From contig OW818651.1 in NCBI GenBank assembly GCA_942492885.1, positions 2,479,513 to 2,543,512 on the forward strand: DNA of 64,000 nucleotides. Reading direction: 5' to 3'. Position 1 is the stretch's first letter, and each line of letters begins with the position of its first letter. The position numbers and the translations under genes are program-made. This document shows positions 2,805 through 26,072 of this stretch, one piece after another. A model generated the notes under the pieces. It was given only the letters and a program-made list of their open reading frames with translations, made no database searches and was not told the origin of the DNA. Origin of the DNA: an uncultured Eubacteriales bacterium (GTDB taxonomy: Bacteria; Bacillota; Clostridia; Christensenellales; CAG-138).

Positions 2805-2807
2805 CCC

Positions 2808-10687: not shown

Positions 10688-10764
10688 AGGCTTTATAAAC
10701 AGAGAAATCGTAAAAAAAAGCCCATAAATGAGGAAATTTTAGTAAAAATACGCCTGAAAACGCA

Positions 10765-10793
10765 TTGAAAAATAAAATAGATTACATTATAAT
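10765..10793 (+). promoter_or_regulatory. sigmaA-type promoter
   Basis: TTGAAA-17-TATAAT near the start of the 1.15-kb intergenic region. Confidence 0.5.
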
Positions 10794-11571
10794 CGAAAAT
10801 GTAACGATCGAATGTATGAATAATTATTGTATATGTAGCAAAATCGAGCGACGCAAATGCTTTTCTACAAGAAAAATTACATTGTAACGGCCATATACGG
10901 CAATCCGGCGTGCATAATCACTTGACAACTGTGTCTGAATTTGGTATTTTTTAGACTGTGTGGATTTGTACTTTCATCCAATACCACCAAGCAAACGCAA
11001 ACCAACCTCCGCGGCATACTGTTAATATTTCATGAACTTTAACGGATTTTTATACAATCGCCGCGCACTTCGGTTAATATTAGAAAAAGAGCAGAACAAG
11101 AGGGTTTTTTCGGGGATTCATACCAGATAGAACGAAGAAAACCTTAAAAAATTAATGTATATTAAGTAACTATCATGCGCCATACAACAGAGTTGACAAT
11201 ACGCGAAAAGACAGTGATTCGTCACAATTGACCCAAACTCTACAGCAAATGCAACATCAGCATGAAGATGCGTGACGAACCTATTCACTCACAACCGGTA
11301 GTGTATGCAGTATTTCAGAACACAACATGCAGTTGCCGGAGCAAGATACGTTAATAGAACCAGCTGTTGGAGCGAGCAATAAATATACAATTTTTGTGAA
11401 ACAATGAACAGTATTTGATACAAGACTTATTGTGATTCAACCAAGTATAGCGAGACCCCATCATGTTTTCAAACCATAGCGGCAGGTTTGAGAATCCTCG
11501 ATGAAACAGCCGCAGCATCCCCAAGCCGGATTCACGTTGCACCTTGATAGCTGTATATAAGTGCGATTCTT

Positions 11572-11662
11572 CCCACGCAAATGGCACAACCCGCGAAAGC
11601 GGGCGTCGCAAAGCTATAGGGCCTACCGGCATTCACTTGCCCACGGCAGCCAGTTTCCGAAT
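11572..11662 (+). ncRNA. c-di-GMP-I (GEMM) riboswitch aptamer
   Basis: CACGCAAAUGGCACAA-CCCGC-GAAA-GCGGG-CGUCGCAAAGCUAUAGGGCCUA...ACGGCAGCCAGUUUCCGA. P2 has a GNRA loop, the GCAAAG junction is present, and the G20/A47/C92 equivalents fall at 11583/11610/11657. Confidence 0.88.
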
Positions 11663-11722
11663 GAAGAACTCACGTTTCACACGATCAGCCGGGAACGGTT
11701 TGGTTGTGTTTCAAAAAAACGG

Positions 11723-11767
11723 TGGCGGTTCAGATTCATTGGGAATTTGAGCCGTTGTTCTTTTTTT
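11723..11767 (+). terminator. Putative riboswitch expression-platform terminator
   Basis: GU-rich stem tggcggttca/tgagccgttg followed by T7, between the aptamer and the peptidase gene. Confidence 0.45.
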
Positions 11768-11837
11768 GAACGGCTATCGAAAAAATTCTATCGTTTTATG
11801 GTGTTGACTACTTTTGATCGATTGAGGAGAGACAAAC

Positions 11838-12464
11838 ATGCAGGCTTTGCTGCCGGTGATCTACGGCGCTGCACTGGGCGCCATTCTGGCAGTCCCCGCG
11901 CGGCTCCTCTACGGGTTCTTACTCAAACAGCGCGGCATCGCCGGGCAGATGGAGCGCAAGCACTTCTGGATGTTGCTTGCAGGTATGGCGCTCATCGGCG
12001 GAGTGATCGGCTGGCGGGCGGGGGTTACCTTCCGCGGGCTATACCTCATGCTGCTGCTGCTGGTCGCGGGGCTGGCGTTTTTGATCGATGCGAAGCACCG
12101 CATCATCCCAAACGAGCTTGTGCTCGCAATTCTGGTTCTAGCCGCGGTGTTCGGGCTGACCGGGGTGATACGATTCCAGATTTGGAATTCCCTGCTAGGG
12201 CTCGCCGTATGCTTCGTCATTTTCTTTCTTCCGGGCCTGTTTGGAAAGCAGGTAGGCGCGGGGGATGTCAAGCTGGCAGCCGCGATGGGGTTTGCGCTTG
12301 GGCTAAAGGGCAGTCTGTACGCGATTGCGTGCATGGGCGCTCTGGTGCTGCTCTATGTTTTTCTAAACTGGCGCATACCGTTTGCGCAGCGGCTCAAGAC
12401 GATGATCCCGATGGGGCCGTTTCTGGCGCTTGCGCTGGTCGCAATGTCGATCATATTGGTCTAG
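11838..12464 (+). CDS. Type IV prepilin peptidase (A24 family, TadV/CpaA-like)
   Basis: Polytopic membrane protein with IDAKHRIIPN and GAGDVKL aspartate motifs; upstream of flp genes. Confidence 0.88.
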   Translation: MQALLPVIYGAALGAILAVPARLLYGFLLKQRGIAGQMERKHFWMLLAGMALIGGVIGWRAGVTFRGLYLMLLLLVAGLAFLIDAKHRIIPNELVLAILVLAAVFGLTGVIRFQIWNSLLGLAVCFVIFFLPGLFGKQVGAGDVKLAAAMGFALGLKGSLYAIACMGALVLLYVFLNWRIPFAQRLKTMIPMGPFLALALVAMSIILV

Positions 12465-12692
12465 GAGCAAAACTGGGACCAAATAGCGCGGAAATACCAG
12501 CGACTCAAAAAGTCGACGCTCGTTGCGGAACAGGGAACAATTTTACGGTGCGATCAAAATGAACCTACTCTTGATCGTCGCCGTGCATATTTCGCTGCTT
12601 GGCACCGTTGTTGGAACGATCTTGTTACAAGATTCGGGATAACGCGTGGCAACAGGCCTGCGGAAAATTTCGTGGAAAGGAGGATTACTTGA

Positions 12693-12845
12693 ATGAAAAA
12701 GTTTTTCATGAATGAAGAGGGCCAGGGTATGGTCGAATACGGCCTGATCATCGCGCTCGTCGCGGTTGTCGTCATTGGTGCCATTGCGGCGCTGGGCGGT
12801 GGCGTTGGCAACACCTTTAACTCGATCGTCGGTAATCTGGATTAA
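12693..12845 (+). CDS. flp: Flp/Fap type IVb pilin 1 (50 aa; absent from ORF track)
   Basis: Hand translation MKKFFMNEEGQG-MVEYGLIIALVAVVVIGAIAALGGGVGNTFNSIVGNLD; G|xxEY Flp motif; SD AAAGGAGG. Confidence 0.93.
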   Translation: MKKFFMNEEGQGMVEYGLIIALVAVVVIGAIAALGGGVGNTFNSIVGNLD

Positions 12846-12885
12846 TTAAACCATAGGAAAACTCAAGGGAAGAGGAAGCAGGACG

Positions 12886-13038
12886 ATGGATCGTTTCGTT
12901 TTGAATGAAGAGGGTCAGGGCATGGTTGAATACGCACTGATCATTCTGCTTGTTGCGCTTGTCGTGATCGGCGGACTAACGCTGATGGGCACAAACGTTG
13001 CTGCGTTTTTCAACGATTTTAGCAATAATTTCTTGTGA
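12886..13038 (+). CDS. flp: Flp/Fap type IVb pilin 2 (50 aa; absent from ORF track)
   Basis: Hand translation MDRFVLNEEGQG-MVEYALIILLVALVVIGGLTLMGTNVAAFFNDFSNNFL. Confidence 0.92.
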   Translation: MDRFVLNEEGQGMVEYALIILLVALVVIGGLTLMGTNVAAFFNDFSNNFL

Positions 13039-13173
13039 GAAAACGAAGCAGGTGCGTACCGGAACACGGCGATGCTATCGAGCGCTTTGAATAGGCGAAT
13101 ACGCCTTACCCCTAACACAATTCGTTCGAAACGATTTGCGTTACATTCGTTTTGTGTGTACTTCCCTGGGTGG

Positions 13174-13415
13174 GAGGATTCCAAAAACTGACCTTGTTCG
13201 AGCTGCCGCATCGGCTGACTGCTCGTCTAGCCGGCGCGAACAGATCAGAGCCAGGATTTCCGGAATGAGAGCGACCGTTGGTAACATGGCCGTTCTCATT
13301 CCGGCACTCAGCATTTAACCGGAATCCTCAGTATCTCTGGCGCTGCGACAACAGAATTGCGCTTGCCGCGCGAGAGATGCTGATGATGAGATGCCTGATC
13401 CTGTAGGCAGGAGGG
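13174..13415 (+). ncRNA. Candidate structured RNA / cis-regulatory element of unknown class
   Basis: Several long helices found by eye (13174-82/13321-29; 13188-200/13237-48; 13260-70/13294-304; 13331-48/13363-80). No credible ORF. Confidence 0.45.
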
Positions 13416-13422
13416 AGAAACC

Positions 13423-13854
13423 ATGGAGCAATCGATTGTTGGAAAACCATCTAAGAAGATACGTCGGGAGAACGGTCAGGCGGCCGTAGAGCTGGCTCTT
13501 GTGCTTCCGCTCTTATTATTGTTGATCTTCGGTATGCTGGAGATGGGCTGGCTCGCCTCCACACGGCAGGTGATGGATACCATGACGCGCGAGGCAACCC
13601 GCGCGGGAACAGTAGCCGCGACCACCACCGCCGCAACGACCGCCGTCAATGCCGCCGTCACGAAGATCAAACCGGCTTATTTGACAAATACGGTTACGGT
13701 CACCGTCACGTTCTCCACGCCTTCCAACTTTAAGGCCGGAGACATCACGGTCACCACGGCCTACGATCTGCCGACCTTGACACCGATTACCGCATTTCTC
13801 GCCCCCGGGGGCAGCTTTCACATCGTATCGACGAGTACGATGAAGGTTGGCTAG
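13423..13854 (+). CDS. tadE: TadE-like pseudopilin
   Basis: RENGQAAVELALVLPLLLLLIFGMLE class III signal and TREATRAG motif. Confidence 0.88.
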   Translation: MEQSIVGKPSKKIRRENGQAAVELALVLPLLLLLIFGMLEMGWLASTRQVMDTMTREATRAGTVAATTTAATTAVNAAVTKIKPAYLTNTVTVTVTFSTPSNFKAGDITVTTAYDLPTLTPITAFLAPGGSFHIVSTSTMKVG

Positions 13855-14034
13855 CGGGGAATCCCATTATCGCCACCAGAGACGTTGCAGGCTGGCCAGC
13901 CGAAAAACCGATCGGATTACGGCGGTGCAGGCCGGACACGAAATATTGGAATGCCGGAAAGAGATCGGATCGTTTGCACTTTGCAAGCCAAAGTCGGCGG
14001 ACATCCGTTCAACTGATCCGGCAGGAGGGCTCTC

Positions 14035-14811
14035 ATGAAAAAAATTGTCTTGTTCGCCCTGATCGCCGCGCTTTGCGCGGGCGCGTTGCTCTATTTTTAT
14101 CTGGGCAATCTCGAAGCGCAAAAAGAGGTGAAGGTGGAGTACGACAACGTGGTTGTTGCCTTGACCAACATCCCCGCTTATACGCCGATCACGGCTGACA
14201 TGGTCACATTCAAGCAGGTGCCGCTGGGATATGCGCATCCGCTTGCCGCGCACACGCTCGAAGAAGTCGTAAACTACGTGACCGAGAGCGACATCATCGA
14301 GGGCGAGCAGCTATTGCCCGCCAAGCTCAAGCAATATGGTGAGGCCGACAGCGGACTATCGTATGTCGTGCCGGAAGGCTTGCGCGCGGTGACCGTCGGG
14401 GTCGATGAAGTCACCGGCGTCGCTGGATTTTTGCAGCGCGGGGATTATGTAGACGTCATCTCCTACACCACCACGACCTATCTGCCTGCCGAGGCACCAG
14501 TTGTCCCGGAAGGCGAAGAACCCACGGCAGCCCAGCTGCCGCAAACGCTGAGCACCACGCTGGTTGCCGCGCAGAATGTACGCGTGGCAGCGGTCGGCAT
14601 GTCTCTCTCGGGCAACGCGACGACGGCGGAAGGCGAGCCGGTCACCGGATACGGCAGCGTGACGCTGCTATTGACGCCGGAGGACACCATGCGTGTGGTG
14701 CAGGGTGCAAGAAGTGGCGCGATCATCCTGATTCTGCGTGCGACGGGCGACCATACGCCTAACACGGAAGAACCGGTCATCAACGATATGCTATTGGTCC
14801 AGGCACAGTAA
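14035..14811 (+). CDS. cpaB: Flp pilus assembly protein CpaB/RcpC (SAF domain)
   Basis: VVVALTNIPAYTPIT (SAF), GLRAVTVGVDEVTGVAGFLQRGDYVDVI, SVTLLLTPED. Confidence 0.92.
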   Translation: MKKIVLFALIAALCAGALLYFYLGNLEAQKEVKVEYDNVVVALTNIPAYTPITADMVTFKQVPLGYAHPLAAHTLEEVVNYVTESDIIEGEQLLPAKLKQYGEADSGLSYVVPEGLRAVTVGVDEVTGVAGFLQRGDYVDVISYTTTTYLPAEAPVVPEGEEPTAAQLPQTLSTTLVAAQNVRVAAVGMSLSGNATTAEGEPVTGYGSVTLLLTPEDTMRVVQGARSGAIILILRATGDHTPNTEEPVINDMLLVQAQ

Positions 14812-14819
14812 GGGGAAAC

Positions 14820-15947
14820 ATGAACAGCATTCGCATCATGTTGGCAGCCACATCTGCCGACGACAGAAAACTAATCTCCGGCTTGTTGACGGACGAAGCC
14901 TTGCGCGTCGTCAGCTCCTTCCGTCCGGATGGCGACGGGTTGAAGAAGGCATCTTCGCAGCCTGCGGATGTGCTTTTGATCGGAACCCGCGCGCTGCCGA
15001 CGCAGGAGCTGGATTTTGCGGAGCGGATGTTTACGACGCGAAGCGACATCACGATTCTCCTGCTTGCTCCCGCGCTGGACAGCCGCACGCTCGCCCGCGC
15101 GATGGAATGCGGTATTGCCCGCGTGATCGATATCGACAGCAGTGAACACGACATCTGCACCCATATCATGACCGCGGCAAACCGTGACCAGAACCGCCGC
15201 ACCTGTACACAAAAAATCGCAAGCTATGACTCCAAGATCATCGCGTGCTATTCGCCCAAGGGCGGCGTCGGCAAAACCACGCTCGCGGTCAATTTGGCAT
15301 ATGCGCTTGCAACCCTGAATAAAAAAATTGCGCTGATCGATCTGAGCTTGCAGTTCGGAGAGGTTGGCGTTTTTTTGGATATTCCAAAGGGCGACACCAT
15401 TGCGGACATGGTGGAGGAGCACTCCTTTGAGCTTTCCACCATCAAGAGCTATCTCATTCGCCATCAAAGCGGTATGCAGGTCATGCTCTCGAGCAGTTCG
15501 CCGGAGTATGCCGAGCTGATCCAGCCGGTACATGTCAACTCTATTCTTTCTACGCTCAGGACAGAGTTTGACTATGTCGTCGTCGACATGGGCGTCGCCT
15601 TCGGCGATTGCGCCATTGCGGCGATGGAGACCGCGGATACGATTCTACTGGTGGTCAACGAGGATATCGCCTCTTTGCACGACGCAAAGCGCAGCATCAA
15701 GGTGCTCGAGGCGCTCAACCAGCAGGACAAGCTGAAGATCGTCGTCAACAAGGACGGCATCTCGACCATCACAGTCAAAAACGTTGCAAACCTTTTAGAG
15801 GCAACGCCCGTGCTTGTGATTCCGTTTGATCTCAAAGCGGCCATGCTCGCGATCAACCGCGGAATTCCGATGCTCAGCTGCGCGCCGAATTCCAAGGCGA
15901 GCAAGGTGATTCGTGAATATGCGCACTCCTTGATTCGGAGGGCATAA
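14820..15947 (+). CDS. cpaE: TadZ/CpaE-like receiver-ParA/MinD ATPase
   Basis: N-terminal receiver-like fold, deviant Walker A SPKGGVGKTT, LIDLSLQFG; position in the tad operon. Confidence 0.88.
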   Translation: MNSIRIMLAATSADDRKLISGLLTDEALRVVSSFRPDGDGLKKASSQPADVLLIGTRALPTQELDFAERMFTTRSDITILLLAPALDSRTLARAMECGIARVIDIDSSEHDICTHIMTAANRDQNRRTCTQKIASYDSKIIACYSPKGGVGKTTLAVNLAYALATLNKKIALIDLSLQFGEVGVFLDIPKGDTIADMVEEHSFELSTIKSYLIRHQSGMQVMLSSSSPEYAELIQPVHVNSILSTLRTEFDYVVVDMGVAFGDCAIAAMETADTILLVVNEDIASLHDAKRSIKVLEALNQQDKLKIVVNKDGISTITVKNVANLLEATPVLVIPFDLKAAMLAINRGIPMLSCAPNSKASKVIREYAHSLIRRA

Positions 15948-15949
15948 GC

Positions 15950-17260
15950 ATGGGATTGCTGGAGCGCCTGGATAAAAAAACACCCGCCTTGCAGACCGGT
16001 GCGGGAACGCAGACGGAGGCGGACGAAACCGCGGCTCTGCGCGACCGGGTTCATTATCAGGTTGTTGAGACGCTCAATAAGCGCGATGAAAAGCACAGCG
16101 GCGGCACGAACGAAGTCGATACGCGCTCCATCATCGAATCCGCGCTGGAGCAGCACGCCTCCAGCATGGCGCGGCCGGAACGCAACCGCATCGCGGTGGA
16201 GATCTACGATTCCATCCGCGGCTTAGGCCCGCTGGAGAAACTGCTTTCCGACGAAACGGTCACGGAAATCATGGTCAACGGAGCCAAGCAGGTCTTCGTA
16301 GAGCGCAAGGGCAAGCTGATGCAAACCGACGTCACGTTTTATGACAACGAGCAACTGCTCAACGTCATCGACCGCATCGTCTCTCCCCTTGGGCGGCATA
16401 TCGACGAAGCAAACCCGATGGTCGACGCGCGCCTGACCGACGGTTCGCGCGTCAACGCGGTCATCGCGCCGCTTTCGCTCAAAGGGCCGCTGCTCACGAT
16501 TCGAAAGTTTTCCAAGACGCCGCTTTCGATTGAAGACCTGATCAACTACGGCAGCCTTAATGTCAAGATGGCGGCGTTTCTCGAATGCTGCGTCAAGGGC
16601 AGAATGAACATGGTCGTTTCCGGCGGTACCGGCAGCGGAAAAACAACGCTGTTGAATGTACTCTCCGCCTTTATTCCATATGACGAGCGCATCGTAACCA
16701 TCGAGGATGCGGCGGAAATCCAGCTGCAACAGGCGCATGTGCTCACGCTCGAAGCGCGCCCGTCAAACCTCGAAGGTACGGGTGAAATCACCATCCGCGA
16801 TCTGGTGCGAAACGCGCTGCGTATGCGACCCGATCGCATCATCGTCGGCGAGGTACGTGGCGGTGAAGCGCTGGACATGCTCCAGGCGATGAACACCGGC
16901 CACGATGGCTCCCTCACCACAGGCCACGCAAACTCCACGCGGGACATGCTCGCGCGTTTGGAAACCATGGTGCTCATGGCGGGCATGAACCTGCCTTTGC
17001 CTGCCATCCGGCAGCAGATTTCATCTGCAATCGATATCATCGTGCAGCAATCCCGTATGCGCGACGGTAGCCGCAAAATCATCGGCATCAGCGAAGTGAC
17101 CGGCATGGAAGGCGACGTGATCGTCACACAGGAGATTTTCGCCTATGACTATGGCGACGGGCGTTCACCCGGACGCTTCCGCGCAACCGGCATCAAGCCG
17201 CGCTGCAGCGACAAGCTCGTCGCGGCGGGCGCAGGGCTCAAGGACGAATGGTTCCACTAA
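15950..17260 (+). CDS. cpaF: Tad pilus assembly ATPase TadA/CpaF
   Basis: EIMVNG, GGTGSGKTT Walker A, ALRMRPDRIIVGEVRG, AMNTGHDGS. Confidence 0.96.
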   Translation: MGLLERLDKKTPALQTGAGTQTEADETAALRDRVHYQVVETLNKRDEKHSGGTNEVDTRSIIESALEQHASSMARPERNRIAVEIYDSIRGLGPLEKLLSDETVTEIMVNGAKQVFVERKGKLMQTDVTFYDNEQLLNVIDRIVSPLGRHIDEANPMVDARLTDGSRVNAVIAPLSLKGPLLTIRKFSKTPLSIEDLINYGSLNVKMAAFLECCVKGRMNMVVSGGTGSGKTTLLNVLSAFIPYDERIVTIEDAAEIQLQQAHVLTLEARPSNLEGTGEITIRDLVRNALRMRPDRIIVGEVRGGEALDMLQAMNTGHDGSLTTGHANSTRDMLARLETMVLMAGMNLPLPAIRQQISSAIDIIVQQSRMRDGSRKIIGISEVTGMEGDVIVTQEIFAYDYGDGRSPGRFRATGIKPRCSDKLVAAGAGLKDEWFH

Positions 17261-17364
17261 ACCCGTTTGAGATGATAAACGAAACGGGTGAGTGGACGAA
17301 ACCCGGCCCGCGCGGCAAACGCGGTTAAACCAAAACAAGATTTTTCAGAGAGGAGATGAAGCAC

Positions 17365-18294
17365 ATGATTCGGACATTGGTCGCTGTGGCGTTTGTCATC
17401 GCGTGCTATTTCATCTTTTATCTGATCGCCATGGCGCGCACGAAGCAAAAGCGCAAGATGGACGAGCGTGTGCGTACGCTCTTTGAGCTCGGCGCAAATG
17501 AAAACGCAAACAAGCGCTCCGGCAAAGGTATTCAACGCAAGAATCCGCTCCGGCTGGAGCAGATTGCCGACGAGTTGTATGTTGCGGGCGTCGCGCTGCG
17601 CGCAGAGGAGTTCATCACCATCTGGGTTTTCACAGGAGTCGTACTTCCGGCAATCGTGCTGTTTCTCGGTGCGCCGGTCACGGTTTGTATTGGTCTCGTC
17701 ATCGTCGGCGCCGCGGCGCCGATCAGCTGGGTGACGATCAAGCGAAACAAACGGCTTGCGCTGTTAGGCACGCAGCTTTCCGATGCGCTAGCGATCATCT
17801 GCAACGCGCTGCGCGTGGGGCAGTCGTTTCAGTCTGCCATGAAGAACGTTGCAGAAGAGATGGAAGAACCCATCTCGCGCGAGTTTATGCGCGTCTATCG
17901 CGAAACACAATACGGTATGCCGCTGGAGACAAGCCTTGGCCGTCTCATCACACGGACAAAAAATCCGGATTTGGAGCTGATGTCCTCTGCCGTCATCATT
18001 CAGCGGCAGATCGGCGGCAACCTTTCCGTGATTTTGCAGAATATTTCAGATACGATCAATCAGCGCATCCGCCTGCGCGGGGAAATTCGAACCATGACCT
18101 CCGCCGGACGCATGAGCGGCTATATCATCGGCGCACTGCCGGGGTTTATTATCCTGCTGCTGATGTTCATCAACCCGGGCTATATCAATATGTTTTTTAC
18201 AACCCCGAACGGGCGCATCATGCTGCTGATCAGCGCGATTCTGGAGATCATCGGTTTTTCGATCGTCAGCAAGATCGTCAACATCAAACTTTAG
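17365..18294 (+). CDS. tadB: Tad inner-membrane platform protein TadB
   Basis: T2SS-F-type: QLSDALAIICNALRVGQSF, QRQIGGNL, EIRTMTSAGR. Start 17365 fits SD spacing better than 17356. Confidence 0.9.
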   Translation: MIRTLVAVAFVIACYFIFYLIAMARTKQKRKMDERVRTLFELGANENANKRSGKGIQRKNPLRLEQIADELYVAGVALRAEEFITIWVFTGVVLPAIVLFLGAPVTVCIGLVIVGAAAPISWVTIKRNKRLALLGTQLSDALAIICNALRVGQSFQSAMKNVAEEMEEPISREFMRVYRETQYGMPLETSLGRLITRTKNPDLELMSSAVIIQRQIGGNLSVILQNISDTINQRIRLRGEIRTMTSAGRMSGYIIGALPGFIILLLMFINPGYINMFFTTPNGRIMLLISAILEIIGFSIVSKIVNIKL

Positions 18295-18309
18295 AGAGGA
18301 GGATGCCGC

Positions 18310-19236
18310 ATGAGGCTTGTTGTTCTGTTTTTTACCATCGCGGTGTTTCTCTCTTTGCTTGCATTGCTGTACGGGGCTGGAATCAAAAGCGACCAGATGC
18401 GCAAGCGCTTCACTCAGGTTGTGGAGACGGAGCGCGCCTATAGCGACGAGGAACTCCGAAAATCCTTTTCCGAGCGCGTGCTCAAACCCTTCATCAAGCG
18501 GGTCTCCGAAGGGATACGCCGCTCAGCGGGCAACAGCAAGCCGGTGGGACAAAGCAAAGCGTCCATCAAGCTCGACAAACAGATCAAGGCATCCGGCATG
18601 GCGCTCTCGTTGCAGGAGTTCTCGTTTATCAAAAGCATGCTGCTGCTCGTGTTTATCCTGCTTGGCATCGCAATGTTTGTCCTGCTGCCGCTGAGCTTCC
18701 TGTTCCGGCTCGTGATTCTGATGGTTATGCTGAATATCCCGCTTTACGGAACCAGCTATTTTCTCACCTCCCGCGTGAAAGGCCGGAAAAACGCCATCCT
18801 GCGCGAGCTGCCGGAGACGATGGACGTTCTGGTAGTGAGCGTGGAGGCAGGGCTGGGACTGGATGCTGCCATTGTGCGGCAATATGCCAAGAATAAGAAC
18901 GTCGTGCTCACGGAGCTCAACAACGCAATCCGCGAGGTGCAGATGGGCGTTCCGCGCAGAACCGCACTCAAGGAGATGGCGGATCGCTGCGACGTCAAGG
19001 AGATGACCGCGTTCGTCACCGCGCTGTTGCAGGCGGATCAGCTGGGCGTTCCGATCAAGAATGTGTTGGAAGTACAGGCAGAACGGCTCAGGGTTGAGCG
19101 CAAGCAGAGAATTCAGGCTGTGGCGGCAAAAGCGCCGATCAAGATCATGCTGCCGACAGTGCTGTTTATCTTTCCCGTGATCTTCATCATCCTGCTTGGT
19201 CCCGCGGCTGTGAGCATGATGGCCACGCTGCGCTAA
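18310..19236 (+). CDS. tadC: Tad inner-membrane platform protein TadC
   Basis: ELPETMDVLVVSVEAGLGLDAAI, QADQLGVPI, AAKAPIKIMLP. Confidence 0.92.
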   Translation: MRLVVLFFTIAVFLSLLALLYGAGIKSDQMRKRFTQVVETERAYSDEELRKSFSERVLKPFIKRVSEGIRRSAGNSKPVGQSKASIKLDKQIKASGMALSLQEFSFIKSMLLLVFILLGIAMFVLLPLSFLFRLVILMVMLNIPLYGTSYFLTSRVKGRKNAILRELPETMDVLVVSVEAGLGLDAAIVRQYAKNKNVVLTELNNAIREVQMGVPRRTALKEMADRCDVKEMTAFVTALLQADQLGVPIKNVLEVQAERLRVERKQRIQAVAAKAPIKIMLPTVLFIFPVIFIILLGPAAVSMMATLR

Positions 19237-19320
19237 AGTAAAGATAGAAATACGCAACCCCGTTCGCTTTTGACAGGCGAAAGAATATAAAACCCGCCTA
19301 AACTGACAGTGAGGAACCGC

Positions 19321-19662
19321 ATGAAGAGTGTTACAATCGCAAAAAACGGCGAAACCATCGCGCAGGTTTGGCACGCAACCGGATATTTTGCCAGACTGCG
19401 CGGACTGTTGGGGCGATCACTGCAGGCGGACGGCGGCATGCTGCTCACTCCCTGTAACGCCATTCACACCATCGGCATGGGCTATGCGATCGACGCGCTG
19501 TATCTGGACCGGCAGGGGCGCGTGCTGAGAATTGATGAATCACTCAAACCGGGCAGGGTACTGCCGCATCAGCGCGGCGCGAAACATGTTCTCGAGTTGC
19601 CGGACGGCTGCGCAAAGCGGCGCAACATTTCGGCGGGGGACATATTGGAGGTAATCCGATGA
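19321..19662 (+). CDS. DUF192 family protein
   Basis: FARLRGLLGR...GMLLTPCNAIHTIGM...IDALYLD...VLELP. Confidence 0.85.
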   Translation: MKSVTIAKNGETIAQVWHATGYFARLRGLLGRSLQADGGMLLTPCNAIHTIGMGYAIDALYLDRQGRVLRIDESLKPGRVLPHQRGAKHVLELPDGCAKRRNISAGDILEVIR

Positions 19663-20594
19663 ACGAGCGAATCGAGCGCAACGAAGAGGGAATCGATTCC
19701 CTGCGCAGCCGCATGGACGCGGACGCACGGTTTCGCCGCTCTTTATCCGGCTATGACCCGCAGGATGTGCGCGCATATGTGGAGAACGTAAAGCGAATTT
19801 TCGCGCAGCAGACAAAAGCCGCAAAACTCGAGCAGGATCAGTTGCTCGCCCAGCTGGATTCCGCTAAGAGCGAAATTCAGGCGCGCAACTACGGCATCAA
19901 GAAGTTTAAAGAGTTGCTGGTCGAGCGCGAAGTGCAGCTCAACACCGCGAACACGCGCATCAACGCGCTCCTGCAGACCGTCAAGTCGCATGGCGCGGAG
20001 CGCGAGGAGCTCGAGCGCCTGCGTCAGGATGTGGCGAGCAGCGGTAATTTGGAGCGGATTCAACACCTGGAGAAGGAAACACAGCAGCTGCGTTCCGCGG
20101 TTGCGCAGGCGTCCAACCTGGTCAACACCTGGAAGGCGGAGCGCGAACGGCTGATGGAAGAGAACGATCGCCTGCGCGAAGAGGTCTACTATATGCGCGC
20201 GGTGGCGATGAAGCCCGAGCAAAACGCAGAACCGAACCGCCCGTATCCTGTGCAAAACACGGAACCGAACCGCCCGTATCCCGTGCAAAACGCATACCCC
20301 GGCGCATACGAGCAGAACACGCGCCCGCGCGCGGACGTGATCACCGCGGAGAACCGCTTTGTGCAGCCTGCCGTGCAACAGCCCGTGCAGCAGCCCGTGG
20401 TAAATTCGCAGCAAAAAGAATTCTCGCAGGTGGCCGATAAACTCGCGACCATGTTCGCCGAGGCGTATCAGCTCATCAGCCAGTTTAAGTCCAATCTGGA
20501 TGCGCAGCCGGAGCAGCAGCGCGCAGGGCAGCCTGCGATGCAGATCTTGCGCCCGGACACCGTGAATGCGGATGTGTTCTATCCCAGAAGATAG
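19659..20594 (+). CDS. Coiled-coil protein with DivIVA/GpsB-like N-terminal motif and P/Q-rich tail
   Basis: FRRSLSGYDPQDVRAYVE resembles the DivIVA F-x3-FRGYD-x2-EV motif; long heptad region; ATGA overlap with DUF192. Confidence 0.6.
   Translation: MNERIERNEEGIDSLRSRMDADARFRRSLSGYDPQDVRAYVENVKRIFAQQTKAAKLEQDQLLAQLDSAKSEIQARNYGIKKFKELLVEREVQLNTANTRINALLQTVKSHGAEREELERLRQDVASSGNLERIQHLEKETQQLRSAVAQASNLVNTWKAERERLMEENDRLREEVYYMRAVAMKPEQNAEPNRPYPVQNTEPNRPYPVQNAYPGAYEQNTRPRADVITAENRFVQPAVQQPVQQPVVNSQQKEFSQVADKLATMFAEAYQLISQFKSNLDAQPEQQRAGQPAMQILRPDTVNADVFYPRR
20220..20294 (+). repeat. 33-bp in-frame tandem repeat (about 2.3 copies; QN[A/T]EPNRPYPV)
   Basis: caaaacgcagaaccgaaccgcccgtatcctgtg / caaaacacggaaccgaaccgcccgtatcccgtg / caaaacgca. 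Confidence 0.92.
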
Positions 20595-20618
20595 TGCCTC
20601 AAGGCAAATGAACACAAG

Positions 20619-20664
20619 AAAAGCGCAGAAGCTACGGCAGAGGGCCGCGCGTTTGCGCTTTTTT
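20619..20664. terminator. Intrinsic terminator ending the tad operon
   Basis: aaaagcgca...tgcgctttttt between convergent genes. Confidence 0.65.
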
Positions 20665-20725
20665 GCAGGACATCCGGTAACGATTGCACCAATATAGAGA
20701 GAAACGATTCAGGCAAGAGATGCCG

Positions 20726-21163
20726 TTAGTTGGTTTTCTCGTTGCGGTAGAGGATCACCTTGCGGGCAAAGAAATTCCAGAACAGCACGACGGCTGAGGC
20801 GACCACCTTGGAGATCATGTAGTGAAACTGCACGATTTCCGTGAAAAAATACAAGAGCGCTTCGGTTAAGCCTAGTCCGACCAGCCCGATGAGTGCATAG
20901 CCCGCAAACTCCAGCACGCGCCCGACCCGCGCGGTCTCGGCGCGAAACACCAGCGCCCGCGAGAGCAGGAAGTTAAACACGAGCCCCGCGACAAACCCAA
21001 AGCACGCGGCAAGCAGATAGTGCATCCCTGCGCGCGCAAATAACCACAAAACGCCCGCGTCGACGAGGAACGAACACCCGCCGACGAACACATAGCGGAA
21101 GAACTGGATGAGCGGCCGCGTGGTCGGCTCGGTAAACAGCGTCTTGAACAAGGATTTTTCCAT
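20726..21163 (-). CDS. GtrA-family lipid-linked sugar flippase
   Basis: QFFRYVFVGGCSFLVD...NFLLSRALVF...SKVVASAVVLFWNFFARK; four TM helices. Confidence 0.9.
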   Translation of the reverse strand: MEKSLFKTLFTEPTTRPLIQFFRYVFVGGCSFLVDAGVLWLFARAGMHYLLAACFGFVAGLVFNFLLSRALVFRAETARVGRVLEFAGYALIGLVGLGLTEALLYFFTEIVQFHYMISKVVASAVVLFWNFFARKVILYRNEKTN

Positions 21164-21183
21164 CTATGCCTCCGTGTGGCGTG

Positions 21184-22737
21184 TTACGATTTCTTTTCGT
21201 GATAGCTCTGCTCGGTGTTGACGTTCCAGACGTTTTCGCGGCTCGACACACCGGCGCGGATGTTTGATACCGCTTCAAACGCCGTTGCCATGGAGTGATC
21301 CATGTTGTTGTAGCGGTGCTGTCCGTTGCGCCCGATGCAATAGAGGTTTTCAAACCCGTCCAAATACGTTTTGACCCGGTCGATCTCGGCATAGGTGTCA
21401 AAATAGGCCGGATACGCCTTTGCAACGCGCTCTCGGCAGCTGCTGAGGATGGGTGTGTCGTCGCCGATGATGCCGATGCGGATGAGCTCCTCCACTGCAA
21501 GGCGTGTGCAAGCCTCTTCGGTGAGATTCCAGAATTCGTCCCCCTCAGCGCAGAAATACTCCAGCCCGACCCAGACTGTGTTGAGCGGATCTTGCACCAT
21601 ATAGGGCGACCAGTTGTTGAAGATCTGTACGCGGCCTATCTTCACGCTCTGATCCTGCACATAGATCCAGCAGTCGGGGACGATGTCTCCCAGCGTGCGG
21701 ATGCCGGTCGTGTTCTTGAGCTTAAGGCGGTCGACTAAAAGGCCGACGGTGACAAAATCGCGATATGGCAGGCCGTCTGCAATCTGCCGAATCTCGCCGG
21801 GCACCTCCGGTAGGCCCGCGATCAGCGCACGCAGCGGCATGGAGGAGAGCACGAGATCGCAGGGGACTGCCTCGCCGCCGCAAAGAACCGCCGTGATGCG
21901 GTTTTGATCACAGGAAAAGCCGGTTACAGCTTTACCGAACAGAACGTCGCCGCCGCGCGCGCGCACCTGGTCGCAAACCGTTTCCCAGAGCTGACCGGGG
22001 CCAAACTTCGGATAGGCGAACTCCTCGATGAGCGAGGTTTCCACTGTGCGCCTGCTCTTTGGCAGCAGCCGCTCTAGTTTGTTTTTGATCAGCGCGAGGA
22101 TCGAAAGTCCCTTGACGCGCTGTGCACCCCAGTCCGCGGAGATGCGGCTCGGATGCCGCCCCCAGACTTTCTCGGTATAGCTCTCGAAAAACATGCTGTA
22201 GAGCACCTTGCCAAAACGATTGATGTAGAAATTTTCCAGCGACGTCTCCGGCAGTTTGCGAACGCAGGCGTAGAGATAGGAAAACCCCGCACGCAGGGTG
22301 GTAAGAAGCCCCATGTTGCGAAGGGTAGACCACCTCAGGCTGATCGGATAATCATAAAAGTTGCCGCCGAAATAGATCCGCGAGACGCGGCGGCGGCTGA
22401 GCATGACGCGATCCTCCCGCTCCGGGTCCGGGCCGCCGGGCGAAAGACGCGCTTCCCGCACCAGCACGCGCTCATCCAGCGCAGGCTGGCCTTGCATGGG
22501 GAGCATGCCTTCCCACCATTTGGTAACGCGCGCATCCTTGGAGAAAAAGCGGTGTCCGCCGATGTCGATCCGGTTTCCGGCGTGCTGCACGGTCTTGGAG
22601 ATTCCGCCGACGCGCGTGTCCTCTTCGAGGATAGTGACGCGATATGATTCCGGCTCTGAGAGCAGTTCATACGCTGCGGTAAGCCCTGCCGGGCCCGCAC
22701 CGATGATGACCACATGCGTTTGTTTCGGTTGTGACAT
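21184..22737 (-). CDS. FAD-dependent oxidoreductase (protoporphyrinogen oxidase / UDP-galactopyranose mutase-like superfamily)
   Basis: [50 protein letters not shown]. Confidence 0.8.
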
Positions 22738-22960
22738 TTGCGCTCCTTATGATGATTGTTTCGGGATGAAACAGGCGAAAGAGATCTGTTTGAGTTCGCT
22801 CCATCATACCATTTTTCGTCTGCGAAAAAAAGGCAATCGCGAGAATTCACCCAGCACTTTACGCAAAGTGTGTGTCGCAAAAAGAATAAAAACCATTAGA
22901 ATATCCATTTGGATTGAGCCGCGCACGGGACGTGTGCATAGAGGAATGAGGACGGTTGTA

Positions 22961-24478
22961 ATGAGCCAACTTGAGCAAGAGCAAGCGACAAAGCGCGCAG
23001 CGCCAAAGCAGGATACGGCGCTTGCGCTGCCGGAAAAACAGAATCGCACAACCAAGTGGATTTTGATGCTGCTCGTCTTTCTTCCTTGCGTACTCGTGAA
23101 TCTACAGCTGGATAACGATCTTTGGTTCTTGCTCAACAGCGGGCGCTTTGTATTACAACACGGCATTCCGACCATTGAGCCGTTCACCCTCCATCAGAAT
23201 TTCAGTTTTGTGATGCAGCAGTGGCTCTCCGCCGTGATCTTCTGGGGCGTCTACTCCAAGCTTGGCGCGGTCGGCATCCTTGCGCTTGTGTTTATGCTCT
23301 ATTGCGCAATCGTCTTTGTGACGTATCGGCTCACACTGCGCATCTCGGACGGAAACCAGATTGCGTCGTTTCTCGCAACCATCGTGACCTCTGCGGCGCT
23401 CAGGCTAGTCATGACATCCCGCCCGATGATTTTTACGATGCTGCTGTTGATTTGCGAACTGTATCTCGTTGAGCGATTCATCCGCTCATCAAGCGTGTGG
23501 TTTCTCATTCCGCTTCCGGTGCTCTCCGCGCTGCTGATCAATCTGCACGCGGCGATGTGGCCGATTCAGTTTGTGATTTTGCTGCCGTACATGATCGACG
23601 CGTTTCGCTTCAAGGTCTTGTTTGTCGAAGGGCAGGGATATCCCAAACGGTATTTCTTCCCGGCGATCGGGCTGATGTTTGGCGCGGGGTTTCTGAATCC
23701 CTACGGCTGGGATGCGATGAGCTATGTTTTTCGCTCCTACGGGTTTCGGGAGATCAGCGTGGTGCAGGAGATGCAGTCCGCGAACATCAACACGGTTTCC
23801 GGAAAGCTGATCTTCGGTGCGTTCTTCCTGCTACTTGCGATCTACATGCTCAAAAAGGAGCGAAAGACGCGTCTGCGCTACGCGCTCTTGCCGCTTGGTA
23901 CGGCGGTGCTCGCGCTGTCCTCACTGAGGAGCTTTTCGCTGTTTGCCGTGTGCGGCATCTTCCCGCTGGCGTACTTCCTGAAGAATGTAACGTTGCCCAC
24001 GGGCAAGATTAAATCACAACAAGGCGTCCTGCGCCTCCGGGCGGCTTTAATCGCGCTGGTCGCGCTGGCGGTCGGGTTGCTGTTTTTCCAGCGCGTGAGC
24101 ACCTTTGTCAAAACAGATGAAGCGCCGGAGGTATCAACGGCGGTCAATTATCTGCTCGAACACGAGCAGACGCAGGACATGGTGCTCTACACGGGCTATA
24201 ACGACGGCGGATACGCGGAGTTTATGGGGTTGAAGCCCTATATCGACCCCAGAGCCGAAGTGTTCGTCAAGAAGAACAACGGGCAAAGAGACGTCATGAA
24301 GGAGTATTATGAACTGCAATATGGACAGAAATACTATAAAGAAGTGATCGAGCACTATCACTTTACGCATCTGCTCCTCACGCATGAGGATCTGCTGTCT
24401 ACATATTTACCGCATGATGCGGCATATAAGCTGATTTACGAAGACAGCGTGTATTTGATCTATCGAAGCAGAGGATGA
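22961..24478 (+). CDS. Polytopic membrane protein, GT-C-like glycosyltransferase candidate
   Basis: About 11-13 hydrophobic segments; DNDLWFLLNSG in the first outer loop; C-terminal soluble domain YNDGGY...YIDPRAEVF. ATG 22961 behind GAGGA (the 22403 extension overlaps the opposite gene). Confidence 0.6.
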   Translation: MSQLEQEQATKRAAPKQDTALALPEKQNRTTKWILMLLVFLPCVLVNLQLDNDLWFLLNSGRFVLQHGIPTIEPFTLHQNFSFVMQQWLSAVIFWGVYSKLGAVGILALVFMLYCAIVFVTYRLTLRISDGNQIASFLATIVTSAALRLVMTSRPMIFTMLLLICELYLVERFIRSSSVWFLIPLPVLSALLINLHAAMWPIQFVILLPYMIDAFRFKVLFVEGQGYPKRYFFPAIGLMFGAGFLNPYGWDAMSYVFRSYGFREISVVQEMQSANINTVSGKLIFGAFFLLLAIYMLKKERKTRLRYALLPLGTAVLALSSLRSFSLFAVCGIFPLAYFLKNVTLPTGKIKSQQGVLRLRAALIALVALAVGLLFFQRVSTFVKTDEAPEVSTAVNYLLEHEQTQDMVLYTGYNDGGYAEFMGLKPYIDPRAEVFVKKNNGQRDVMKEYYELQYGQKYYKEVIEHYHFTHLLLTHEDLLSTYLPHDAAYKLIYEDSVYLIYRSRG

Positions 24479-24607
24479 AGTGCGCAGCGCGATTTGTCAA
24501 ACCCGGGTGATTTACGTATAACAGCCGGAAAAAACAGAATGCACGCAGCATGATTGCCTGCTTGCACAGCACATTCTGGTGAGACTGTCGTGTTACATCG
24601 GAACTTC

Positions 24608-24635
24608 TTGACTTTTTTAGTTGATCGAATATACT
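24608..24635 (+). promoter_or_regulatory. sigmaA-type promoter for tadG
   Basis: TTGACT-16-TATACT. Confidence 0.6.
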
Positions 24636-24654
24636 GACAATAGTTTGGGAAATG

Positions 24655-24737
24655 ATTGGCAATCCGCGTAAATGCGGGTGCTGTAAAGGCAAGTATCGAC
24701 CAATCCGCGCGCTTGCGCGGTAGGGTTGCCGGATGGC
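24655..24737 (+). ncRNA. Structured 5' leader, degenerate c-di-GMP-I-like
   Basis: GGCAAU-CCGCG-UAAA-UGCGG...GUAAAGGC...CCAAUC-CGCGC/GCGCG-GUAGG-GUUGCC-GGAUGGC keeps GEMM motif order, but part of P3 is missing. Confidence 0.35.
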
Positions 24738-24763
24738 GACCGACAGTTTGGGAGGAGATCTAT

Positions 24764-25900
24764 ATGCGTTCCATCATTCAATGGCTCAAAAAGGAAGCGG
24801 GGCAATCCATCATTCTGGTTGCGATCTCCATCGCGCTGCTTTGCGGTGTTGTGGCGCTTGTCGCCGATGTCGGCATGGTATCCGTGAGTCAGGGTCAGCT
24901 GCAAAACGCGGCGGACGCTGCCGCGCTTGCCGCCGCACGCGACCTGCCAACCGCAGCCACGGCCAAGAGCACCGCGGTGAAATATGCCGGCTACAACGGC
25001 GTCGCCGCCGCGGACACGACGGCCACCACCCCCTACAAAGGCAATGCCAACCGCATTGAAGTCGTCTGCAAAGAGACGGTCAACTATACGTTTGCGCGAG
25101 TCATCGGGCTCAACAGCACGGTGGTCTCCGCCCGCGCAGTCGCCGAAAAATCGGGCGGCGGAGGCGGTTGCTTTGGTTACGCGGTCTTTTCGGGCGGCAA
25201 CTCGCTGCTCCTTGGTATGTATTCCAGCGCACTCAACATCACGGGAAGCGTGCACTCGAACTATTCGCTGATGATCACGGGTTCCAGCCAGACGATCACC
25301 GGAAATGCGGAAGCTGTCACCTCGCTGAACTGCTATGTTTCTTCGATTACAATCGGCGGTGTTGCGCAGGGTGCATCCATCGATATTCAGGGAAGCACAA
25401 TCAACGTTCCCAACCGGCTGACAAGCCCTGCCGCATTTATTCCGATGCCCGATTTTTCGGCTGAAGTGAAGACGGAGGCGACGGCTGCGGGAAATGCATC
25501 AACCGGAAACAAGACGTTCTACGGTACCAACTTCAACGTAGACTCTTCGTTCTATGTGGACGGCAACGTCCAAGTGGCGGCAAGCACGTTCTCGGGACAG
25601 GGAACGATTTGCGCGACGAAAGACATCAACATGAGCGGCAGTATGTTGGAAGCCAACTCGGGTACGGCAGTCTGTCTGTATTCGACCGGCGGCAACATCA
25701 GCCTCTCGACATCAGGGCTGACCATCAATGGAACGCTCTACGCGCCCAATGGAAAAATCGGGATCTACGCCAGCAATATCAACATATACGGCAGGGTCAT
25801 CGCGAAGGAAATCATTATCACGGGCAGCAATGTCAATATCATCTCCGGTTCAACCGACCTTGACTTCCTCGCCGGCGGAACCATCGCGCTGATTGAATAG
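24764..25900 (+). CDS. tadG: TadG-like pseudopilin with C-terminal beta-rich putative adhesin domain
   Basis: KEAGQSIILVAISIALLCGVVALVADVG...QLQNAADAAALAAA...VSARAVA; G/S/T/N-rich C-terminus. ATG 24764 behind GGGAGG. Confidence 0.85.
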   Translation: MRSIIQWLKKEAGQSIILVAISIALLCGVVALVADVGMVSVSQGQLQNAADAAALAAARDLPTAATAKSTAVKYAGYNGVAAADTTATTPYKGNANRIEVVCKETVNYTFARVIGLNSTVVSARAVAEKSGGGGGCFGYAVFSGGNSLLLGMYSSALNITGSVHSNYSLMITGSSQTITGNAEAVTSLNCYVSSITIGGVAQGASIDIQGSTINVPNRLTSPAAFIPMPDFSAEVKTEATAAGNASTGNKTFYGTNFNVDSSFYVDGNVQVAASTFSGQGTICATKDINMSGSMLEANSGTAVCLYSTGGNISLSTSGLTINGTLYAPNGKIGIYASNINIYGRVIAKEIIITGSNVNIISGSTDLDFLAGGTIALIE

Positions 25901-25970
25901 CAACAACAGCTTCGGAATGCTTCGGTAATCTTGACGCAAGACAAAACAGCATACAATATGCGAAACAAAC

Positions 25971-26000
25971 AAGAGGGGATGCAAGCGCATCCTCTCTCTT
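25971..26000. terminator. Intrinsic terminator between convergent genes
   Basis: aagaggggatgc-aagc-gcatcctctctctt. Confidence 0.6.
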
Positions 26001-26072
26001 CGTCTTATCGATTCTATTTTTCAAACTATTGCTTCTATTTTGTTTGATTATCGATTCTATCTTGTCTGAATA

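Follow-up and report, generated by a model that had tools for sequence, protein, structure and literature searches.

The Tad locus and its genes

The 64,000 nt stretch analysed here (assembly GCA_942492885.1, contig OW818651.1, positions 2,479,513 to 2,543,512, from an uncultured Eubacteriales bacterium) is referred to as the window and numbered from its first letter. It carries the genes of a Tad (type IVc, Flp) pilus, preceded by a riboswitch for cyclic di-GMP (c-di-GMP) and followed by an accessory gene pair, a sugar cassette and a gene for a TadG-like protein. Tad pili are widespread colonisation organelles, and their accessory factors in Gram-positive anaerobes are nearly unknown. On balance we favour reading the riboswitch-controlled monoderm Tad operon, the accessory pair and the cassette module as one system; the further step, that the cassette glycosylates the pilus, is put forward tentatively below. 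The G+C content of the window is 53-61%. The features of the locus are the following.

11573-11661 (+): c-di-GMP-I (GEMM-I) riboswitch aptamer; Rfam RF01051, 67.6 bits
11721-11767 (+): intrinsic terminator (expression platform); 17-bp stem, U7 tract
11838-12464 (+): TadV/CpaA-type A24 prepilin peptidase, 208 aa, no further domain found; PF01478, E 8.6e-15
12693-12845 (+): Flp pilin 1, 50 codons, motif GQG/MVEYG; PF04964 (Flp_Fap), E 2.5e-10
12886-13038 (+): Flp pilin 2, 50 codons, motif GQG/MVEYA; PF04964 (Flp_Fap), E 2.4e-9
13039-13422 (+): structured flp2-to-tadE spacer, 384 nt; minimum free energy -151.7 kcal/mol, z -6.24
13423-13854 (+): TadE-like pseudopilin; PF07811, E 5e-15
14035-14811 (+): CpaB/RcpC; PF16976, SAF; TIGR03177, E 8e-40
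14820-15947 (+): TadZ/CpaE-type ParA/MinD ATPase with receiver-like N-terminal region; AAA_31, ParA, CbiA; faint Response_reg
15950-17260 (+): CpaF/TadA secretion ATPase; T2SSE, E 2.4e-66
17356-18294 (+): TadB platform protein; T2SSF
18310-19236 (+): TadC platform protein; T2SSF
19309-19662 (+): DUF192 protein; PF02643, E 7e-16
19659-20594 (+): coiled-coil protein, 311 residues, with a DivIVA/GpsB-type N-terminal motif; profile of homologues
20726-21163 (-): GtrA-family membrane protein; PF04138, E 9e-22
21184-22737 (-): FAD enzyme, PRK07208 family, 517 residues; NF005549, 762.8 bits
22955-24478 (+): polytopic membrane protein with predicted GT-C fold, 507 residues; AlphaFold2 and Foldseek; no Pfam or NCBIfam family
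24764-25900 (+): TadG-related protein; PF13400, E 2.9e-10; weak Tad_C and DUF7305

The row of plus-strand genes from 11.5 to 20.6 kb is uninterrupted, and tadV, flp1, flp2, tadE, cpaB, tadZ, cpaF, tadB, tadC, the DUF192 gene and the DivIVA-domain gene would be transcribed as a single operon. The gene for the GT-C protein is transcribed divergently from that for the FAD enzyme.

Judged by its gene content, the locus is a secretin-less Tad pilus cluster of a monoderm anaerobe of the class Clostridia. The Tad core is complete for a monoderm, with Flp pilins, CpaF, TadB and TadC, TadZ, the TadV peptidase and TadE all matched. The two pilins and the Tad core genes named in a preliminary description of this DNA are borne out by Pfam matches at the coordinates listed above. 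No secretin gene is present in the locus (the gap between cpaB and tadZ is 8 nt, and 11838-20594 has no unassigned large open reading frame), as would be expected for a monoderm.

Related loci, designated by L numbers, were collected in two ways. A search with CpaF gave 80 loci, with one genome per species. All window proteins were compared with all loci by tblastn, a phylogenetic profile that misses fast-evolving small or coiled-coil proteins, and 23 related loci were surveyed for riboswitches by Rfam scans. From the cassette side, three exact-protein look-ups were combined with a metagenome scan using an alignment of the GT-C protein (80 loci). Neighbourhood statistics cover at most 80 loci per scan on contigs of uneven length, and taxon labels are those on the deposited records. 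The nearest relative, L001, is the metagenome-assembled genome (MAG) 'Firmicutes bacterium HGW-Firmicutes-9'; its CpaF is 90% and its prepilin peptidase 76% identical to those of the window, and the two loci are collinear between the signal peptidase gene and the arabinose genes, the position of tadG excepted. A Christensenella-labelled MAG, L081, keeps the full window layout with proteins that are 62-89% identical.

The described monoderm Tad pili of Bifidobacterium breve (tad2003) and Micrococcus luteus have the same Flp, TadE-type, A24 peptidase, TadA/CpaF, TadB/TadC and TadZ components and likewise no secretin (PMC6916266). The window differs from them in encoding CpaB/RcpC, which that review counts as missing in monoderms, in having both TadZ and a TadG-like protein, and in its leader riboswitch, its pair of DUF192 and DivIVA-domain genes and the neighbouring GT-C cassette. 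In Bulleidia extructa and Helcococcus ovis, the tad operon (PMC12786226) shows the same order of tadV, two pilins, minor pilins, machinery, DUF192 and coiled-coil genes; neither a riboswitch nor a glycosylation cassette is reported for it, and the DivIVA/GpsB-type N-terminus of the last protein was not recognised.

A c-di-GMP-I riboswitch in the tadV leader

The aptamer covers the full RF01051 model (1-87 of 87), and its score is to be set against a gathering score of 35 (E 4.3e-11). With a match so far above the gathering score and a terminator behind it, the riboswitch that had been claimed for this Tad locus is confirmed. An Rfam scan of the whole window found no second riboswitch and no other RNA family. 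The terminator starts 60 nt 3' of the aptamer and ends 70 nt 5' of tadV, and the same layout of aptamer and terminator is found in L001 and behind most related aptamers. In the survey, 13 further c-di-GMP-I aptamers were found in 8 of the 23 loci, all on the Tad strand and 5' of Tad genes. They are single in L001, L004, L109 and L111, double in L002, L003 and L107, and triple in L019; the tandem doublets and triplets are a feature of the window's relatives. Sequence conservation with L001 begins merely 37 nt 5' of the aptamer, so the operon promoter probably lies at about 11536-11570.

The 2007 paper on the GEMM motif already names cpaA among the GEMM-associated genes (PMC1950547), so the link between this riboswitch and Tad genes, though real, is of a kind seen before; in that work GEMM-I aptamers precede cpaA and pil genes and likewise stand in the leaders of type IV filament operons. 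In Clostridioides difficile, pilA1 is described as having an upstream c-di-GMP-II ON switch (Bordeleau 2015, as cited in PMC6916266). The window shares terminator attenuation with that case; it differs in that its aptamer is of class I and its operon of the Tad (IVc) rather than the type IVa pilus kind, possibly with OFF polarity.

Heading the operon, the riboswitch would act by transcription attenuation, with the aptamer permitting or blocking the terminator at 11721-11767. Its polarity was examined on 12 leaders by folding prefixes and by comparing mimics of the 'bound' and 'unbound' states. Each related aptamer with a recognisable platform has a self-contained terminator 20-60 nt downstream, and none of these terminators uses the aptamer's own 3' strand. 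When the last 22 nt of the window aptamer are freed, an anti-terminator becomes the minimum-energy fold (-42.9 versus -36.3 kcal/mol); the same is true of L002a, and the 5' arm of the terminator complements the aptamer segment AAUGGCA in both L107b and L111 (sequences compared by eye). An aptamer followed by a self-contained terminator and an anti-terminator is the classical OFF layout, and for this reason we lean, at somewhat better than an even chance, towards an OFF switch in which c-di-GMP leads to termination. The disagreement of the folding models weighs against this polarity, as the terminator survives both mimics in L001, L002b, L003a/b, L004 and L019b; folding was rejected as a decisive test of polarity, since the results differ among the 12 leaders. 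If the switch is OFF, c-di-GMP would shut down the pilus operon, the opposite of the ON switch implied by the earlier model. The single, double and triple c-di-GMP-I aptamers of these loci provide a natural setting in which to study how a second messenger controls Tad pili, possibly by turning them off.

Alignment with the 13 aptamers from related Tad loci places a G in the window aptamer at a column that varies between G and A, presumably position G20/A20 of the pocket, which is associated with recognition of 3'3'-cGAMP. Some aptamers of the tandem arrays (L002:5518-5604, L003:4452-4536, L019:4723-4808 and 4834-4919) carry A for the first G of the conserved GGCA (alignment A5, column 11). If the column is G20/A20, some Tad operons may integrate two cyclic dinucleotides.

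A structured spacer between pilin and machinery genes

The flp2-to-tadE spacer is strongly structured relative to shuffled sequences (z -6.24); its equivalents have z -6.5 in L001 and z -2.85 in L081. Within the window's spacer are two hairpins, a conserved one of about 19 bp (13260-13304) and another at 13329-13382. The first is kept in the window, L001 (6291-6333) and L081 (about 348-392), with the surrounding spacer mostly diverged, and its stem shows one G:C-to-A:U change and several G-U changes across the three genomes. It has no U tract and matches no Rfam family; a permissive Rfam scan of 10688-14100 gave nothing besides the riboswitch. A dispersed repeat was considered and rejected, as the hairpin is unique in the window and its only other occurrences are at the corresponding place in L001 and L081. 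The hairpin-rich spacer would most likely set the ratio of pilin to machinery transcript, through partial termination, processing or 3'-end protection, and our best guess is that it uncouples abundant pilin mRNA from machinery mRNA.

The preliminary description had called the locus 'RNA-layered', with two more structured leaders besides the riboswitch. The term holds for one riboswitch and one conserved hairpin region and fails for a second structured leader: as structured RNAs both the peptidase-to-flp1 spacer (12465-12692; z -0.50, not conserved in L001) and the tadE-to-cpaB spacer (13855-14034; z -1.30) were rejected. A 27-codon open reading frame for a hydrophobic peptide (12560-12643, MNLLLIVAVHISLLGTVVGTILLQDSG) was also discarded as probably spurious because the peptidase-to-flp1 spacer in which it lies is not conserved in L001.

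The DUF192 protein and the DivIVA/GpsB-type coiled-coil protein

A DUF192 gene is present in 29 of the 80 CpaF-anchored loci, including 14 of the 18 from Bacillota, nearly always directly 3' of tadC; it is also found in Tad loci of Chloroflexota and Acidobacteriota. Together with the PF02643 match, these counts uphold the earlier view of DUF192 as a Tad-linked part. Neither a signal peptide nor a membrane segment is visible in the protein. The stop codon of its gene overlaps the start codon of the coiled-coil gene (ATGA), an arrangement from which we conclude that the DUF192 gene is translationally coupled to the DivIVA-domain gene.

In the coiled-coil protein the N-terminal motif reads FRRSLSGYDPQDVRAYV, and the middle region is rich in Q and P. 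When 10 Tad-linked N-termini are combined in a profile, its best matches among solved structures are GpsB (9pv2, E 3.8e-5) and DivIVA (2wuj, E 2.7e-4), and 8 of the 10 Tad-linked coiled-coil proteins match PF05103 at E up to 1. Weighing against the assignment, the single window sequence stays below the DivIVA thresholds (PF05103, 19.8 against 28 bits; TIGR03544, 15.7 bits against a cutoff of 22, E 0.009), and on its own it has no Pfam match at E 0.01. Given the profile matches, 'DivIVA-like' is defensible at the level of the domain, though not by curated thresholds for the sequence alone; 'pole-anchored', by comparison, is an extrapolation because its basis is this weak DivIVA/GpsB-type N-terminal domain only. 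Like DivIVA and GpsB, the window protein has the N-terminal motif F/L..(G)Y.p.eV..Y followed by a coiled coil. It differs from them in its long Q/P-rich region and in being encoded in a pilus operon rather than a division cluster, and it has Ser at what we take to be the position of the Arg in the membrane-binding loop of DivIVA.

Homologues were detected by tblastn in L001 and L002 only. Reading the open reading frame 3' of DUF192 revealed the motif F/L..l.GY.p.eV..Yie with a coiled coil also in L003, L004, L006, L081, L088, L107, L110 and L139, which gives 10 further loci in total. The DUF192/coiled-coil pair thus recurs at the 3' end of Clostridial Tad operons. It is also seen in Bulleidia extructa, where the last two genes of the tad operon encode DUF192 and a coiled-coil protein of unknown role (PMC12786226, 2025). 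The two proteins would form a cytoplasmic, membrane-peripheral accessory pair that serves as a scaffold or positioning factor. As such the pair offers a testable answer to how a monoderm Tad complex holds together and is positioned without PilMNO.

In Chloroflexota Tad loci the gene 3' of DUF192 is of ComF type (L007:13680-14387, L017:13769-14476, L010:9378-10103), and its product has a double zinc ribbon and a phosphoribosyltransferase domain. This neighbour hints at a role in DNA uptake for those Chloroflexota Tad systems.

Proteins of the sugar cassette

The FAD enzyme belongs to the NCBIfam family PRK07208 (NF005549), whose name is 'hypothetical protein'. Among solved structures it comes closest to UDP-galactopyranose mutases of eukaryote type (UGMs; 4dsg, E 3.9e-16; 3ute, E 6e-12), with an alignment that spans residues 161-501. 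The enzyme reaches 24.7 bits with TIGR00031 against a cutoff of 303, and it has no match to Pfam GLF, which weighs against a firm assignment of its substrate.

The GT-C protein has no Pfam or NCBIfam match, and a sequence search of the PDB gave no match; fold comparison alone worked. It has at least 398 homologues, all unnamed and without Pfam domains, and the family comprises 1,151 clusters (50% identity) at E <= 1e-30 and 6,003 at E <= 1e-10. An AlphaFold2 model built on 38 homologues (pLDDT 85, pTM 0.84) was compared with Foldseek, and the top 30 matches are all GT-C enzymes (E 1.5e-6 to 3.5e-3, TM 0.45-0.59), among them STT3, PglB, AglB, ArnT, DPY19, AftD, Emb and PMT. D55, in the motif LDNDLWF just after the first membrane helix, is invariant in the 38 sequences; in the model it stands where GT-C enzymes carry their acidic motif, in the first extracytoplasmic loop.

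GT-C enzymes need a lipid-linked donor on the external side of the membrane. GtrA-family proteins accompany lipid-linked sugar pathways, and UGM-type enzymes make furanose nucleotide sugars. By analogy, the flavoenzyme would make an unusual (furanose-type) sugar precursor, which would be presented on polyprenyl phosphate on the external side of the membrane with the help of GtrA; the GT-C protein would then pass the sugar on to a Tad component outside the cytoplasm, the likeliest being the Flp pilin or the TadG-like protein. A polyprenyl-phosphate-linked donor is suggested for the predicted GT-C enzyme by the adjacent GtrA gene alone, and the cassette has no GtrB-type polyprenyl-phosphate glycosyltransferase, which counts against it. 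A pilus protein is proposed as acceptor because an extra flp and a tadG recurrently accompany the cassette. The phrase 'glycosylation-type cassette' of the preliminary description can be kept for the GtrA protein, the UGM-like flavoenzyme and the GT-C-fold protein; that the pilus itself is modified we infer from gene neighbourhood alone.

The cassette beside Tad genes

The neighbourhood of cassette and Tad genes is conserved well beyond close relatives. In the CpaF-anchored set, the cassette occurs only in L001 and L027 (Veillonellaceae; genes for GT-C, flavoenzyme and GtrA directly after tadC). An unbiased count was made on 20 deduplicated long-flank loci recovered through the GT-C protein alone: the flavoenzyme/GT-C pair lies beside Tad genes in 7 of the 20, and in about 11 more short contigs. 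Split by the flavoenzyme, Tad adjacency is 6 of 10 with it and 1 of 10 without it; by our own approximate reckoning, for a single 10-kb locus and a genome of 3 Mb, chance would give about 1%. The pairs beside Tad genes show at least six gene arrangements in several phyla. The cassette is upstream and co-oriented with the Tad genes in L107, L110 and L111, downstream and co-oriented in L109 and L027, divergent from the peptidase gene in L120 and L139, convergent with DUF192 and tadC in L128, L131, L134, L138, L159 and L163, and a few kb from the Tad genes in L101 and L136. Neighbour joining of the GT-C proteins distributes the Tad-linked members over several separate clades. An Acidobacteriota Tad locus has, directly after DUF192, a gene for a 536-residue remote homologue (L064:13847-15457; hhalign probability 97.6%, E 2.7e-12) whose acidic motif is qDGD. 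From these arrangements the UGM-like, GtrA and GT-C genes, together with that for the TadG-like protein, are probably a recurrent Tad accessory module.

In two loci the layout speaks for a control shared by cassette and pilus. L107 has one c-di-GMP-I aptamer before a tadG-flp-flavoenzyme-gtrA-GT-C row and a second before the stretch from tadV to the DivIVA-like gene; L109 has a single aptamer, at the head of an operon in which DUF192 comes first and the GT-C and flavoenzyme genes come last. The composition of the pilins also differs with the cassette. In the C-terminal tails of Flp, Asn makes up 20% in cassette-adjacent and 5% in cassette-less loci (Mann-Whitney p 3e-4, kinship ignored), and Asp plus Glu 6% and 17% (p 0.008, kinship likewise ignored); the cassette set consisted of the window, L001, L027, L101, L105, L107, L109, L110, L111, L120, L139 and L163 (n = 12), and the cassette-less set of L002-L006, L013, L019, L020 and L047 (n = 9).

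These observations lead to a tentative reading in which the GT-C protein and the UGM-like flavoenzyme, often with GtrA, form a dedicated Tad glycosylation system, with the DUF192/DivIVA-domain pair as a second Tad-specific module. The system would be one of Bacillota that reaches Acidobacteriota and Chloroflexota and is sometimes under the riboswitch class of the pilus. Several findings weigh against it. The cassette stands alone in L083 (Desulfitobacterium), with no Tad gene within 10 kb, and in L084 (5145-11515) it follows genes for a HAD-GtrA fusion, a UbiA prenyltransferase and a polysaccharide deacetylase, again with no Tad neighbour; by analogy that set looks like wall-glycan chemistry, recalling the decaprenyl-phosphoryl-arabinose type. 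Of the 20 long-flank loci, 13 are without a Tad neighbour. In the window itself the cassette lies in transcription units separate from the operon and without a riboswitch, gtrA and the flavoenzyme gene being encoded on the other strand, so co-regulation is not shown here. The window pilins also lack an N-x-S/T sequon; sequons are present in L001, L101 and L107a, and N-glycosylation sequons of pilins were rejected as evidence since the window has none. Finally, no extra density is seen on the Tad pilus of Caulobacter (PMC10710030).

Much of this would be explained by general decoration of an envelope glycan (wall polysaccharide or teichoic acid), with Tad adjacency reflecting shared islands of surface-structure genes or an indirect need such as wall remodelling for passage of the fibre. 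L083, the company of UbiA, HAD-GtrA fusion and deacetylase genes in L084, the 13 loci away from Tad genes, the sequon-free window pilins and one whole further GT-C clade without flavoenzyme and Tad genes all fit such a role, and three-component Gtr-type systems decorate wall polymers in Gram-positives. It accounts less well for an adjacency that recurs in at least six gene orders, several GT-C clades and several phyla, for the co-orientation of the L107 cassette with an extra flp and tadG behind a riboswitch of its own, for the cassette at the end of the L109 Tad operon, or for pilin tails whose composition tracks the presence of the cassette. We regard envelope decoration as unlikely, although by no means far-fetched.

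Pilus glycosylation, the reading we put forward, has parallels among other filaments. Pilins are glycosylated in Pseudomonas aeruginosa by TfpW with D-arabinofuranose, elsewhere by the PilO/TfpO/PglL O-oligosaccharyltransferases, and in archaea by AglB, which acts on pilins and archaellins. The window is like these systems (cf. PMC9829042) in having a polytopic GT-C-type enzyme beside pilin genes and a presumed lipid-linked sugar, and its furanose theme (UGM-like enzyme, GtrA) resembles the case of TfpW and D-arabinofuranose. It differs in that the GT-C protein has no detectable sequence relationship to enzymes of the TfpW, PilO, PglL or AglB type and that the flavoenzyme is UGM-like rather than DprE1-like. 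With the three-component Gtr systems (GtrA, GtrB and a GtrC-type GT-C enzyme) the window shares GtrA and GT-C, a UGM-like flavoenzyme taking the place of the GtrB-type GT2 enzyme.

In the literature searched, no paper links a GT-C or UGM cassette to Tad loci, DUF192 in a tad operon is mentioned just once, and neither a DivIVA/GpsB-type tail gene nor a riboswitch-controlled cassette is described. Already known are the monoderm type IVc core, a c-di-GMP riboswitch on type IV filament genes and, once, the tail of DUF192 and coiled-coil genes. What appears new is the cross-phylum neighbourhood of Tad, UGM-like, GtrA and GT-C genes, the DivIVA/GpsB-type tail gene and the occasional riboswitch on the cassette. 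We know of no glycosylated Tad pilin demonstrated for this GT-C family, and to our knowledge, if the reading is true, no machinery dedicated to glycosylation would have been described for Tad pili before the cassette. The 'hypothetical' membrane proteins of one large family would then gain a function, glycosylation would be added to type IVc pili in parallel with type IVa and archaeal pilins, and there would be a handle on adhesion and immune recognition in gut and environmental Clostridia.

The TadG-like protein

In the AlphaFold2 model of the TadG-like protein (pLDDT 83), a long N-terminal helix like that of pilins is followed by a C-terminal beta-helix head. With Foldseek the model matches beta-helix ice-binding folds, the Thermus minor pilin ComZ (E 5.6e-3, TM 0.39) and, weakly, Caldicellulosiruptor tapirins. 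Homologues carry the NCBI name 'TadG-related'; an exact-sequence look-up of the window protein in the contig collection gave no record. A tip-located minor pilin is a fair reading of the model. The gene had been described as a detached adhesin: 24764-25900 does encode a TadG-related protein that combines a pilin-like helix with a beta-helix head, and adhesion would be a putative function of it. The gene has a promoter-like site upstream (24608-24635) and a terminator downstream (25972-25997).

TadG-like genes are found in most Bacillota Tad loci, usually between tadE and cpaB. This is their position in L001 (6870-8027), which has none 3' of its GT-C gene, whereas the window has a 180-nt remnant spacer between tadE and cpaB (13855-14034) and a 1.6-kb tadG-bearing insertion after the GT-C gene (24479-26088). 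The number of copies is one in the window and in L001, three in L081 (11809-15903), two in L086 and none in L088; those of the window, L081 and L086 are placed after the GT-C gene. On these comparisons the presumed tip protein looks like one that undergoes rapid turnover among close relatives.

The likeness to ComZ, a competence pilin of Thermus, raises a different use for the machine, namely DNA uptake or another non-adhesive role, with the TadG-like protein as a ComZ-like tip factor. The ComF-type gene after DUF192 in the related Chloroflexota Tad loci points the same way, and Flp pili of Micrococcus luteus mediate transformation. Nevertheless, no ComF, ComEC or DprA gene is seen in this locus, and beta-helix heads are equally typical of adhesins, the tapirin matches being weak. 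We consider this role improbable for the window.

Genes upstream of the operon

Two genes 5' of the riboswitch had been counted as parts of the same unit.

8699-10687: NlpC/P60-CHAP wall hydrolase, 885 nt 5' of the aptamer
360-2804: 5TMR-LYT/PAS/PAS/GGDEF/HD-GYP protein, 814 aa, with intact GGDEF and HHERWDGTGYP motifs

The second is the sole c-di-GMP-turnover gene found. Although the preliminary description placed it just upstream, its end is 8.8 kb away from the riboswitch, and six genes intervene (a macro-domain gene, a sugar-transferase gene on the opposite strand, two transketolase-subunit genes, a signal-peptidase gene and the NlpC/P60 gene). The wall hydrolase is indeed close to the aptamer, but its position is kept only in L001. 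Neither gene can be reckoned among the parts of the unit. The model of one functional unit largely survives the test of co-occurrence: the riboswitch, DUF192, the DivIVA-motif protein and the cassette co-occur with Tad genes, and the hydrolase and the c-di-GMP enzyme drop out.

Taken further, the same misfits would leave an ordinary riboswitch-controlled Tad operon with nothing integrated beyond tadV to tadC and with coincidental neighbours. The distance of the GGDEF/HD-GYP gene and the hydrolase shared only with L001 are what this predicts, as are a cassette on separate transcription units and a TadG-like gene that is an insertion relative to L001. Coincidence is nonetheless hard to reconcile with the co-occurrence counts of DUF192, the DivIVA-motif protein, the cassette and TadG, or with L081, which retains the same full layout at 62-89% protein identity, and we hold it to be very improbable. 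One system made up of the operon, the accessory pair and the cassette module is the reading we favour.

Between the hydrolase gene and the riboswitch lie 885 bp of A+T-rich DNA (10688-11572; G+C 0.49 in its 2-kb bin), in which no convincing open reading frame and no Rfam match were found. At the far end of this upstream region, the macro-domain gene starts 3 nt after the GGDEF/HD-GYP gene, the two together occupying 360-3320.

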